64,000 nucleotides of DNA from Pristiophorus japonicus (taxonomy: Eukaryota): assembly GCF_044704955.1 (NCBI RefSeq), contig NC_091980.1, positions 128,526,001-128,590,000 on the forward strand, written 5' to 3'. Positions within the stretch are counted from its first letter, which is position 1. The number at the start of each line of letters is the position of its first letter. The notes beneath the pieces were generated by a model. The model did no database searches. It worked only from the letters and a program-made list of their open reading frames with translations, and was not told where the DNA came from. Below, one piece after another: positions 11,836 through 48,028 of this stretch. A program made the position numbers and the translations under genes.

Positions 11836-11862
11836 GTTTGGTACTTCATCAAAGTTTAGACT
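11836..11862 (+). promoter_or_regulatory. Degenerate IRE-like element, copy 1 5' UTR
   Basis: TAC-TTCAT-CAAAGT-TTAGA vs canonical ferritin IRE TGC-TTCAA-CAGTGY-TTGRA; lies between TATA and ATG. Confidence 0.55.
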
Positions 11863-11884
11863 TCAATATTTAAAAAAAAATAAG

Positions 11885-13967
11885 ATGGCTTCTCAAGTGC
11901 GGCAGAACTACCACCAGGACTGTGAGAATGCTGTTAACAAGCAGATCAACACGGAGCTCTATTCCTCCTATGTTTATCTCTCTATGGTGAATGTTGTATA
12001 TTTGATCACTTTACAATGGTGGCTATGTAATGTGAATTGACTAAATTCTATGCTTGTATTCCGATAACTTCTATTCCTTGCTATCTGGTTCTCCTCTGAA
12101 ATGCCTTGTCTAGTGTGGAAGGTTCCAAATTTACACTGCTTCTGGTAGATTTGGTTCCTTGGGATGAATTGGCCAGTAAAACTGGACCAGTTTTTCTCCT
12201 TTGTACTATGTGAACTGTGTACTATGACCACGTCTCCTACTTTAAGGGGTCTGCTTACAGTTCTAGTAGTTTCTCTTAACTAGCCTGTAGAAAATATAGC
12301 TGGGTTAACAAACAATGATTGTGATTCTGGTGACCAAAAGGGGAAAAATCGTGAAGTTGCTTCACTAATTTGCAGAGCTACAATGAATATAGGGTGCCAA
12401 GATGAAGGTTCCAATTTTGAGCATGTTCAATCAAAGCTGAATTGGTGATCATGGAATGATGCAGCACAGGAGACCATTCAGTCCATTGTGCCTCGCTGAC
12501 TGTTGGGTGGAGCAATACAACTTGTCCACTCCTTGCGTGTTCCCATAGCCCTGTCTAGTATTTATCCAATTTTCTTTTGAATGTTGGCATTTAATCTGCT
12601 TCCACCACCTTTTCATGCCCTGTATGCATATTAAATAATAAAAAAATAGTAATTCCACTGGTTCTTTTGCAAATCACAAAGTTTCCAGATTTAGTTGTGA
12701 AATTATCCACTGTCTGTACAAGGTTAGTTAAGTACGTAGTTTCCATTATAAGGCCCAGGATAATGGTCTGCCATGCAATATCCAACTACGCTTTTGATCT
12801 CTCCAGTCCTACTACTTTGACCGGGATGATGTTGCCCTGCGTCACTTTGCTGAGTTCTTCAAGGAGCAGTCACATGAGGAACGTGAGCATGCTGAGAAAC
12901 TGATGAAATTCCAGAATCGGCGTGGAGGACGGATCATCTTGGCGGACATCAAGGTTGGATTTCATCAATGTGTGGCCTTCTGTCTGGCTCCCCTTGGACT
13001 GATTGGAACCAAACAATATGCAGGATAAATAAGCCATTTGGCTAAGCTGGTCTTTGCCGGTGTTGAGACTCCAGCGGGCCTCCTCCCATCTCGCTTCATC
13101 TCTCCCTGTCAGCATATTGTTCTAGTCCTTTCTCCCCATGCACTTGCCTTGCTTCCCCTTAAATATTCCCTTTTAAATTCCCCCTCCATGTCGTTCTGAT
13201 GACCTAGGCCATCACATTGGTTTCATGGTAATGTAGACTTTTTTGATTGTAGCCCTAATTTTGTTCCATACATCATGTTTGTTTCATCCTGTATAAGTGA
13301 ACTGTTAAAATGTTATTTCTTTCCAGAAACCAGAGCAGGATGAGTGGAGCAATGGTCTGGTTGCGATGCAGAGAGCTCTGCAGATGGAGAAGAATGTGAA
13401 CCAGAGTCTGCTGGATCTGCACAAACTCTCCACTGAGAGCACCGACCCTTGTGTAAGTTTTTTTTTTTAAATGATGTGGGCTTAGGTTGAGGAAACTTGT
13501 TCTTGAGCCTAATTAAAAGTTCTCTGTGCACAATAGCTTTTGGTTGGTGGTTTTTTCTTGCGTGTTGCGGGGGCGGGGGGGGGGCGGGAAAAAGTTGGCC
13601 TACTGTGGACAGTAACTAGAAAATATGTCCCAGTGATCCCAGGACCTGAGAACTTATTGTACAGTGAGTTTAAACTAATGTAGTAATTCCATCAATCTCC
13701 ATTGCACCACTTGACTATCTTCCAGTTCAAAGGATTAAAATCCAAACTCTGAAGGGGAAGCTGACATTCCTTGATATCTGCTGCTGGACATAACTAGTTT
13801 CCCTCTTTCAGTTATGTGACTTCCTGGAGACCCACTACTTGGATGAACAAGTGAAGATGATCAAGAAGCTTGGAGATCACATCACCAACCTGAAGAGACT
13901 GGGAGCCCCTGAGAATGGCCTGGGAGAGTACCTGTTTGACAAGTACACCCTGGGGGAGCGTGACTAA
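11885..13967 (+). CDS. fth1: Ferritin heavy/middle-type subunit, copy 1 (intact, 176 aa, 4 exons)
   Basis: Exons 11885-11986, 12807-12953, 13327-13452, 13812-13967; all introns GT-AG, phase 0. Translation [176 protein letters not shown]. Ferroxidase residues equivalent to human FTH1 E27,Y34,E61,E62,H65,E107,Q141 are present. The symbol denotes the family; exact orthology (H vs M) is not established. Confidence 0.95.
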
Positions 13968-14102
13968 ACTGCTTGGGATCAAGCTTATTTTGTTTAGTAT
14001 TTCCAATTTATATAATTGGGACCCCCGTGCTGTTGGCAATGATGGCTTTGTACAAAGAGCTCTGAGATCTGGGCTCCTGATGTGAAATGTAGCATAACTG
14101 TA

Positions 14103-14108
14103 AATAAA
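14103..14108 (+). terminator. Polyadenylation signal, copy 1
   Basis: AATAAA ~135 nt after the stop, followed by a GT/T-rich tract; conserved at 25203, 37908 and 50062. Confidence 0.75.
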
Positions 14109-15169
14109 CTGTTCAACATCGGACTGGGTTTTGTCTTTTTTGTATGTTTTGAGCAGTTACTTATTTTTGATTGATGTGACTTTGCTCATATCAAAGCATT
14201 GCCTAAGGATTTAGTTTGAAATTTCATACATTAATGAGCCATGAGTTGGCCTGTGATTGACAGCTTACTATTTCCCAAATTGTCTTTGGCTCTCACTATC
14301 AAAAACTTTACATCTGCCTGTGTTTTCAGAATTGCACAGAAAACTGGTGTTTGTTTTGGACCTATTAGCATATCTTTCTATTCCTTTCTGCCTCCTGTGT
14401 TTATCTAACTTACCTTTTTTGCATTCAGAGTGAGAACTGTGGATAGCTTAGTAAACTAAACACACTGCTGCTATAGACTTCTTCTTAAACTATGTGGGCA
14501 AAGGGCAAGTGACATCATACAGATCAGCAATGTCTGAGCTTAAGGCCAGCATTTATTTCTGTCTCCAATTGCCCTTGAGCGTGAGTCACCTGATACAACT
14601 GAGTGGCTTGCTCGGGCAGTTAAGCATCAAACCACCTGGCTATGGGTATGGAGTGCCATATAAGCATGCTAGTGTAAGTTGGCAGATTTCCTTTCCTAAA
14701 CATTACTGATATGGGTTTCATGATCACTGGTACTGATAATTGCTTTAATTTTAAATGTTAATTTAACAAAATTTAAATTATGCAGCTGCCAGGGTAGGTT
14801 TTGTCTCTTGGATCAGTGGATATATCAAATTACGATCCTCTGGGAGGAGTAAATGTATGAAGAAAAACACTGACATTAAAATAGATAACTGTTCCATCAA
14901 CTTATAACCCAATACTAGCAGCTCCTCCATATTTGCATTTAGTCCTGTTGTGCAATTCATACCAAACAGCAATCATCCTTTCCAAATCCCTTTGGCTCTC
15001 TTTGTCCCCTTCTCATTCATGAATGGATTCAAATGTTGTTAATGCTGGAGCTGCAATATTCCAGTGTTTGCAAGTTATTTGAGTAACTTGGCTGAGAATT
15101 GCACTGGGTGCAATTATATCTCAATCTTTAGTCTATCCATGTTAATGTCTTTTTTTTCAAAAGTTTGTT

Positions 15170-46020: not shown

Positions 46021-46022
46021 TG

Positions 46023-47265
46023 GGGCTCAATTTTGCCCAACCCGTTTTTTGGCGCACTTACCTTAAATGCGGCGACTTTGCACGCTGGAAACGGTGCCGG
46101 AAAAAATTCGCCCCATCCTGGCCGCTCTTCCGAGTCCCCGGAGTCCCAGCGTGGCGTGCATTGTACAATGGGGGGTGGACCAACAGGCCAGCGCAGAAAG
46201 CATTGCCGGCAGCTGCGCGCATGCGCAGTGAAGTCTGCACGCATGCTCCTGCCATCCCAGCCTGTCCTGCGGGCTGTGAGCTGGACCTGATGTTCGCAGC
46301 CCCTATCCCCGGCCAAAGGGACGGCCTGATCTCGTCGGACCCTATCCCCGGCCGAGTGGCCTCCCACACCGGCCGGCCGGCCCGCTTTGTTCGCGGGCGA
46401 GGTAGGACTTGGTTTTATTTTTTATTTATTGATAGTTGTGCTTGAGAGTTTTCATTGGTGGGAGGGGGAAGAGAAGGAGAGTTTTTTTGGCGGGGGGGGA
46501 AAAAGAACGTTTGGGGGCGGGGGGAGAAAGCGTGTTTTGATGCGGGGCTGTGGGGGAGAAAGAGTGTTTTGATGGGGGGGGCGGAGAGAAAGAGGATTTT
46601 GAAGTGGGAGGTGGGGGGAGAAAGAGTGTTTTGATCGGGGAGGGAGAGAAAGAGTGTTTTGATAGGGGCGCAGAAAGGGAGAAAGAGTGTTTTGATCGGG
46701 GAGGGAGAGAAAGAGTGTTGTGATCGGGGAGGGGAGAGAAAGAGTGTTTTGATCGGGGCGCAGAAAGGGAGAAAGAGTGTTTTGATGGGGGGGTGGGCGG
46801 GGGTGGAGAAAGAGTGTTTCGATGGCCGGGGGGAGAAGAAAGAGTGTTGTGATGGCGGCGGGGTGAACTTTAAAAAAAAAACTTGATTCTGTCATAAAGG
46901 CATAAAAATTTGTTGTTGATTGATTGCTTATTACTTTTTGTGATTTGTTTAGTGCTTTGTAAGTCTTGGTGCTTTAAATGTACTAACCTGCACCGATTTC
47001 TTAACTGCCCGCAATGTTTTTCAGAGCTGGCCACATATGCTGACCTAAGTCGATTTGGAGTAAGTTTTTGCTGGCCAAAGTGGAATAAATGGTGTAAGTG
47101 TCTGGGAACGCCACCTTTTGAAAAAAAAACTGAACTCAAAAAAATCGCACCAAACTGACTTACTCTGGAGCAAATTTTGGGGGGAAAATGGCATGTTTTA
47201 ACTTACGCCAGAAAAAACAACTTACTCCAAAAAAATTGATGCAAATCATTGTCAAAATTGGGCCC
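46023..47265. mobile_element. PIF/Harbinger-like non-autonomous element (same family as 22549-23425) with internal minisatellite
   Basis: Ends GGGCTCAATTTTGCCCA / GTCAAAATTGGGCCC; shared subterminal sequence (TTTTTGGCGCACT; TTTCAGAGCTGGCCACATA); degenerate 3-bp TSD ATG/ACA. Confidence 0.8.
46555..46860 (+). repeat. Purine-rich minisatellite with core GAGAAAGAGTGTTTTGAT
   Basis: About 9 imperfect ~30-42 bp units. Confidence 0.85.
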
Positions 47266-47801
47266 ACAACCACTATGTTTTGATGTTACAACAAACCCAC
47301 AGATACCTGCACATGACCAACCCAATGAACGATGGGGATCCTCATACACGCACTGAAGCATCCAGAACTATTAAAAAGACACTGACTCGCAAACAACAGA
47401 GGATTCAATTAACCTTTCAAGGTGGCCATTAACTGGTCCAGGCAGAGCACGGTCGATGGGGAGTTCGCTCCATCTGCCTGCCTCTCTTCACAGCTATGTC
47501 CATGCCCCGGCTGTCCCTGGAGGATTGTCTGCTGGTATGTTGGAGGCTTTCCGTGACAGGTGCGCACCAGAGGGACTGGAGTGCAGGGTGGATACAGGGA
47601 ACTAAATTATAATTTGAAAAGTTTTTATGTTACTTTTGTCACATTTTAACTTATTGTTCAATCCCCTTTATAAAGGGGACACTTATGGTTTAAGATTTTC
47701 CCAATTGATTTGCCTAAAGAGTAGGGGATTCATTTAAACCTGTGATTCTGGATATCTGAACTGTGTTTGAGGAAAGTTAGGACAATTTCGATCCTCATTG
47801 A

Positions 47802-47975
47802 GTTGTCAGCCAATGATGCTCATTCTTCAAAGATCTGACTGGCTCTGGGAGTCCATCTCCCCTATCCCTTTAGTTGATTGGTGCTCTGAGAGGCTGCAAC
47901 TTCTGATTGGGTATTGAGGGCTGCCACTCATGATCTCAACTGCCACACCCTGGATTATACCGAAGCATAAATACA
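47802..47975 (+). promoter_or_regulatory. Ferritin copy 4 promoter (three CCAAT boxes, CATAAA 47966-47971)
   Basis: Paralogous to the copy 1 promoter; TATA variant CATAAATA. Confidence 0.65.
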
Positions 47976-48000
47976 GGCTTTTAAGGTAAGTTACATCCCA

Positions 48001-48028
48001 GTTTGTTGTTTCAACAAAGTTTAGATTT
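48001..48028 (+). promoter_or_regulatory. Degenerate IRE-like element, copy 4 5' UTR
   Basis: TGT-TTCAA-CAAAGT-TTAGA (48007-48025); homologues at 22326-22344 and 35606-35624. Confidence 0.6.

Follow-up and report, generated by a model that had tools for sequence, protein, structure and literature searches.

Probable remnants of a ferritin iron-responsive element, decaying at the neutral rate, in a large ferritin gene array of the shark Pristiophorus japonicus

The textbook example of translational control by iron is vertebrate cytosolic ferritin, this control being exerted through an iron-responsive element (IRE) within the 5' untranslated region (UTR) and the iron regulatory proteins (IRPs) 1 and 2. 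Here, we describe four IRE-like segments in a stretch of 64,000 nucleotides from Pristiophorus japonicus (assembly GCF_044704955.1, contig NC_091980.1, positions 128,526,001 to 128,590,000 of the forward strand, or G000:C4:128.53-128.59 Mb; hereafter, the window). These segments are probably remnants of a ferritin IRE that decay neutrally within a large shark ferritin array, the intact copies of which are likely made in the oocyte without IRP control. The window contains exactly four ferritin genes, all on the + strand, and in each of them the IRE-like string lies 39-45 nt 5' of the ferritin start:

11842..11860, + strand, IRE relic of copy 1: C8 present, loop CAAAGT, 3 of 5 upper-stem pairs
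22326..22344, + strand, IRE relic of copy 2: loop CAAACT, G18 lost, 3 of 5 upper-stem pairs
35606..35624, + strand, IRE relic of copy 3: loop CAAAGT, 3 of 5 upper-stem pairs
48007..48025, + strand, IRE relic of copy 4: T in place of C8, loop CAAAGT, 4 of 5 upper-stem pairs

The window holds only 4 of the ~227-350 copies of the array. A protein search with exon 1 yielded 350 candidates, with 149 of the 150 that were scored located on contig C4 between 127.8 and 133.4 Mb, and a DNA search yielded 347; an exact 20-base exon-1 anchor has 227 matches genome-wide, and 98 of 100 among the matches listed fall in the array, which further copies at 127.785 and 133.40 Mb extend to a span of ~5.6 Mb. From the search hits, and hence with a bias toward copies like copies 1 and 4, 128 array copies were sampled and assigned to three UTR types: 97 to type A (relic present; the four window copies included), 8 to type A2 (relic present, with the loop CAAGGC, CAAGGT or CAAGTC) and 23 to type B (no relic).

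Judged by its sequence, the relic is not an IRE. A sequence-only reading of the window had located the four strings where we find them and, in its heading, given all of their loops as CAAAGU, which is the case for copies 1, 3 and 4, but not for copy 2 with its CAAACT; the loop is altered, as the reading noted, and the damage extends beyond it: the stems are broken as well, C8 is missing from copy 4, and the lower stem is absent. Measured against a set of five IRE features from a section of PMC8466369, AGU at positions 15-17 is found in none of the four window copies and in none of the 99 distinct A/A2 copies. The C14 and G18 bases, which the reading had noted in three copies, are indeed present in three of the four and in 72 of the 99, a conservation not above neutral; C8 is present in 3/4 and 67/99 copies, with 9 changes on the tree described below, and U occupies position 19, where U or C is required, in all four window copies. 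The five-pair helix forms in 4 of the 99 copies, and when forced into the IRE fold, the window copies reach +3.8 to +9.5 kcal/mol, compared with -8.9 and -12.1 kcal/mol for the real IREs of this genome. The search with the Rfam model RF00037 suggested by the reading returned no match in the 64 kb at E-values up to 10, nor any around copy 4 or in three of the best-preserved copies, while detecting both controls. Under SIREs-type rules, in our own implementation (motifs 1-21, after the relevant portions of PMC2896125 and the motif table of PMC12230718), 0 of 126 copies pass, whereas both controls do.

The same picture emerges across the array. Of 36 canonical IRE cores, none is located in it. 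No CAGTG lies between the TATA box and the ATG in any window copy, as had been claimed, the sole occurrence within 300 nt being 5' of the TATA box of copy 3, and among the 227 anchor matches, CAGTG is found 24-50 nt 5' of the anchor in 3, all with type-B UTRs. Of 16 matches to CAGRG, 14 fall in the array, with stems examined in sampled copies only; 13 of the 14 resemble type B, and the remaining one, a type-A copy, has CAGAGT as its loop, lacks C8 and forms 2 stem pairs.

The descent of the segment from an IRE is seen most clearly at the level of copy families. Each window copy matches the 19-base IRE core at 13 of 19 positions, a score reached in 28-41 of 2000 shuffles, and the longest word shared with the IRE is significant for copy 2 only (9 of 1000 shuffles, against 196-383 of 1000 for the others). 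Over 20 bases, the majority sequence of type A agrees with the intact IRE of the genome at 17, a score reached in 8 of 5000 shuffles, as does that of type A2 (1 of 5000). Two A2 copies share 14 consecutive identical bases with the IRE of an M-type ferritin gene on contig C19; for the A2 copy put to the shuffle test, none of 1000 shuffles did as well. Absence of significant similarity to IREs, which would have spoken against the earlier proposal, is thus not what the families show. From the TATA box up to and including the loop, the type-A UTR can be aligned to that of the C19 gene, a short deletion relative to this gene removing the 5' lower stem, and in this alignment the 3' arm of the relic has no match to the C19 IRE. 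On moderate to good support, the segment appears to derive from a ferritin IRE. We consider it very improbable that the likeness arose by chance, the UTR being AT-rich and its lineage either without an IRE from the outset or long since deprived of it by deletion, even though three of the four window copies are not significant by the longest common word, type B and two C19 paralogues lack a significant relic in the shuffle test, the 3' arm is unmatched and there is no Rfam score; chance accounts poorly for the two family majorities and the 14-base identities, or for the collinearity of the relic, after the TATA box, with the IRE of the M gene. A candidate second relic in the type-B UTRs and the C19 paralogues (a CTGTGY loop after a TAGAA stem) was rejected, with 3804, 1286 and 2067 of 5000 shuffles scoring as well.

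Nearly all copies have A at position 16. At position 17, type A has A and type A2 either G or U, and G16>A was hence likely the first lesion. The proposal that the complete loop change preceded the duplications accordingly holds for the four window copies, but array-wide the common lesion is G16>A only.

The relic evolves at the neutral rate and is a dead IRE fossil. Changes were counted on a tree of 99 copies, with the expectation derived from same-base columns in the adjacent spacer, UTR and introns: the 24 relic columns changed 119 times against 118.3 expected (P=0.54), and C8, C14 and G18 together changed 25 times against 20.9 (P=0.78). In the same test, the CCAAT-type boxes of the promoter changed 45 times against 106.9 expected (0 of 20000 draws); pseudogenes in the tree dilute any signal of selection, but equally so for this control. 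These rates bear on the altered-specificity element left open in the sequence-only reading, here considered as a re-purposed relic with an IRP variant or an oocyte RNA-binding protein as its ligand. The retention of the C14-G18 bases and of C8 in most copies, the mere 2 and 1 changes at A15 and A16, and the full five-pair stem in four copies would fit such an element. We nevertheless find it highly improbable: the relic as a whole and the C8/C14/G18 set change at rates equal to neutral in a test that detects the CCAAT boxes, there are at least 19 ungapped loop variants, C8, the C-G bases and at least 4 pairs are combined in only 11 of the 99 copies, CAAAGN is not among the 22 SIREs motifs, and 23 of the 128 copies (type B) are without a detectable relic.

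In contrast to the relic, the array protein and its CCAAT promoter are under purifying selection. Among the 58 of 128 copies with all four exons inside the sampled DNA, 28 are intact (21/37 of type A, 1/8 of A2 and 6/13 of B), a few of the remaining copies being called broken on splice sites alone; the mean dN and dS among the 28 are 0.040 and 0.158, and 26 of them retain all seven ferroxidase residues, which we take to be E27, Y34, E61, E62, H65, E107 and Q141 in human numbering. The claim that all four window copies encode ferroxidase-competent ferritins is not supported, two of the four being damaged: copies 1 and 4 have intact four-exon frames with ATG, copies 2 and 3 do not, and the seven residues are present in copies 1, 2 and 4 (array-type protein aligned to solved ferritins). 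Array copies undergo birth and death, and the UTR types, which stay separate in the promoters, are intermingled in the tree of exons 2-4, a pattern suggestive of gene conversion in the 3' part. The genes and promoters of the window are as follows:

11661..11808, + strand, promoter of copy 1: CCAAT and two inverted CCAAT boxes, TATA box at 11800-11808; boxes conserved across 99 copies
11833..11838, + strand, initiator-like element of copy 1, predicted start near 11835; retrocopy L234 begins at the equivalent place
11885..13967, + strand, ferritin copy 1, intact, 176 aa, seven ferroxidase residues; exons 11885-11986, 12807-12953, 13327-13452 and 13812-13967
22363..25055, + strand, ferritin copy 2, open frame with CTG as start codon, TATA box mutated; exons 22363-22464, 23879-24025, 24402-24527 and 24900-25055
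35644..37793, + strand, ferritin copy 3, pseudogene with frameshifts and stops; exons of 100, 142, 124 and 156 nt
47810..48003, + strand, promoter of copy 4: CCAAT boxes, TATA-like element at 47966, initiator-like element at 47998-48003
48045..49927, + strand, ferritin copy 4, intact, 176 aa, seven ferroxidase residues; exons 48045-48146, 48725-48871, 49274-49399 and 49772-49927

Transcription of the array is recorded in the genome itself. In five fragments dispersed through the genome, exon 1 is fused to exon 2; these are spliced retrocopies of array transcripts, and, given that inherited retrocopies imply transcription in the germline or early embryo, the array is transcribed there. The 5' end of retrocopy L234 falls at the initiator-like element, immediately ahead of the relic, and that of L232 at the relic itself, placing the start site only approximately because retrocopies can be 5'-truncated. 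An upstream exon is absent from both, and no upstream exon supplying a canonical IRE, as the earlier proposal required for its refutation, was found. A search for RNA runs with this stretch gave none. Contigs from three runs of other organisms cover the exons, not the relic; one contig matches a type-A promoter up to the TATA box but ends 16 nt later and is uninformative on the relic. In Xenopus, inverted CCAAT boxes (Y boxes) are a mark of oocyte promoters.

Ferritin arrays of this type are already known from other sharks. In the Greenland shark, 155 and 179 ferritin copies form clusters syntenic with those of the great white shark, and expression of the largest cluster is specific to the ovary, according to the passage concerned in a preprint (bioRxiv 10.1101/2024.09.09.611499); that passage labels the copies FTL/FTH1, more than 85% of them full length, and is silent on IREs. 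As in that expansion, copies here are clustered and number in the hundreds, and homologues of the array proteins, in clusters with as many as 180 members, are the ferritins of many sharks, one ray and one chimaera. In a protein tree from a quick search, the array proteins fall in this chondrichthyan group, apart from FTH1 (contig C14) and the M-type gene (contig C19), at an SH-aLRT of 87-89, which is weak support; P0019 and P0024, identical to array products, were not counted as independent. The array here departs from the preprint's description in forming a lineage distinct from the H and M genes, which bear IREs, and in having about half of its modelled copies broken. By this comparison, the ovary is the likely site of array expression. 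Loss of the IRE was not found in print: a literature search, with most subscription journals outside its coverage, turned up no publication that addresses whether shark ferritin arrays carry IREs.

Since the relic fails the IRE criteria and no upstream exon with a canonical IRE is apparent, the array mRNAs likely escape IRP control, as the sequence-only reading had suspected. G16 and U17 are required contacts, single changes at which deregulate human ferritin, according to the part of PMC8466369 concerned, and it is from this that a lack of IRP repression would follow. IRP1 and IRP2 would then be unable to repress the array mRNAs, and ferritin output would be set by copy number and by a CCAAT/TATA promoter active in the ovary, so that array ferritin would provide the egg with a store independent of iron and with an antioxidant buffer, and the separate FTH1 and M genes would supply the ferritin that responds to iron. 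More tentatively, and with less confidence than we attach to the decay itself, loss of the IRE may have been the enabling step for the amplification of this third, chondrichthyan ferritin lineage. The G16 change would have allowed ferroxidase-active ferritin to be made in the oocyte free of iron feedback, with no titration of IRP1/2 by hundreds of IRE-bearing mRNAs, and the array could then have grown to hundreds of copies; the stepwise fossil (G16>A common, U17>A or G, 3' arm replaced, type B relic-free) could be read as the trace of that course.

Several points weigh against this account as a whole. Taken singly, copies resemble the IRE only modestly; the copy number may be inflated by blocks of near-identical sequence within the array; with about half of the modelled copies broken, much of the array makes no protein; and ovary expression is taken from another shark, orthology to whose cluster depends on the weakly supported tree. 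Moreover, the relic might be a secondary acquisition that has since decayed, brought in by gene conversion with the M gene as donor or by an inserted mobile IRE-bearing 5' fragment. Four dispersed IRE-bearing 5' fragments of the M gene do exist (L002-L005), the M gene is matched less closely at synonymous sites (4-fold identity ~43%) than the IRE is by the 5' part of the relic, and the three informative translated UTRs of other elasmobranchs look like the relic-free type B, which hints weakly at an old age of the IRE-free copies. We still regard such acquisition as improbable, given that the type-A TATA region is nearer to type B than to M, that the sequence 3' of the loop does not match the mobile fragment, and that the same excess identity is explained if the type-A lineage kept a working IRE for longer. 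Among the N-terminal extensions of other species, a translated relic was sought and seen only in P0011, which is identical to the upstream frame of copy 2 and thus not independent.

If the decay of the IRE and the escape from IRPs are as we propose, most ferritin genes of this shark lie outside iron control and serve the egg, and the published shark ferritin expansion would be a dosage-driven ovarian system rather than a set of extra ordinary FTH1/FTL genes. For tests of IRP binding, the array also offers dead IREs in a naturally occurring allelic series. All this is less surprising in that IRE-independent and egg-linked ferritins, and the shark array, have already been described. With the ferritin IRE (RF00037, IRE_I; 5' UTR of FTH1/FTL), the relic shares the 5' arm sequence, the near-cap place and, in most copies, C14/A15/G18/U19, but its G16 and U17 are replaced, the upper helix is mismatched, the lower stem is missing and evolution is neutral. 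Relevant sections of the literature describe FTMT as an intronless mitochondrial retrogene that is not IRE-regulated and FTHL17 as a germline ferritin without ferroxidase activity (PMC7760355), and schistosome ferritins, the yolk form included, as lacking IREs (PMC9128280). The shark array ferritins resemble FTMT and the schistosome ferritins in their likely escape from IRP control, and FTHL17 and yolk ferritin in their likely tie to germ cell or egg; unlike FTMT and FTHL17, they keep three introns, the ferroxidase residues and a visible IRE fossil, and number in the hundreds. Ferritin mRNA is abundant in the fish ovary, as stated in a passage of PMC1488847. The hadal snailfish fthl27 is, like the shark array, a tandem ferritin amplification, but comprises 14 copies expressed in most tissues and is proposed, in the portions of the main text concerned, to be a dosage and antioxidant adaptation (PMC10746142), the term IRE being absent from that main text.

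Elsewhere in the genome, FTH1 and the M-type gene carry perfect IREs (46.2 and 45.2 bits), and the IRE system is thus evidently maintained. The fragments L002, L003, L004 and L005 (contigs C10, C12, C17 and C18) are dispersed ~95-nt copies of the IRE-bearing 5' end of the C19 gene, with near-identical start and end bases, no coding sequence and 45.2 bits each; L005 seems to be inserted in a LINE, with a short target duplication. At G000:C20:22,404,672, L255 is a copy of the FTH1 5' UTR in which G replaces C8 of the IRE, and is probably a retrocopy. Beside the IRE-bearing M gene lie two IRE-less ferritins, L220 and L201/L202 (G000:C19 93,055,483 and 93,121,556, both on the - strand), with altered ferroxidase ligands (A58/D59 and K58/Q62, respectively); L220 has the CCAAT promoter of the array, so that C19 may be the source locus of the array. 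An intron-containing ferritin on the + strand (L201/L200/L068, G000:C19 ~93,128,520-93,141,730) has a 31-residue, Arg/Leu/Ala-rich, acid-free N-terminal extension, which resembles a mitochondrial presequence and possibly marks a mitochondrial ferritin of an origin separate from that of the intronless mammalian FTMT.

In and around the window, an inverted duplicate of copy 1 (L007, G000:C4:128,521,724-128,524,825), 96.6% identical over 2.2 kb, lies just 5' of the first position. The public model P0011 reads in frame from further 5' through the relic of copy 2 (upstream frame 22321-22362), probably a prediction artefact due to the lost ATG. About 5 degenerate tandem units of ~350 bp with T-rich tracts occupy positions 32858-34732, 5' of copy 3, one inverted unit of the same repeat is found at 15945-16277, and a 7-base repeat in 13 perfect copies is present at 11222-11312, ~570 bp 5' of copy 1.

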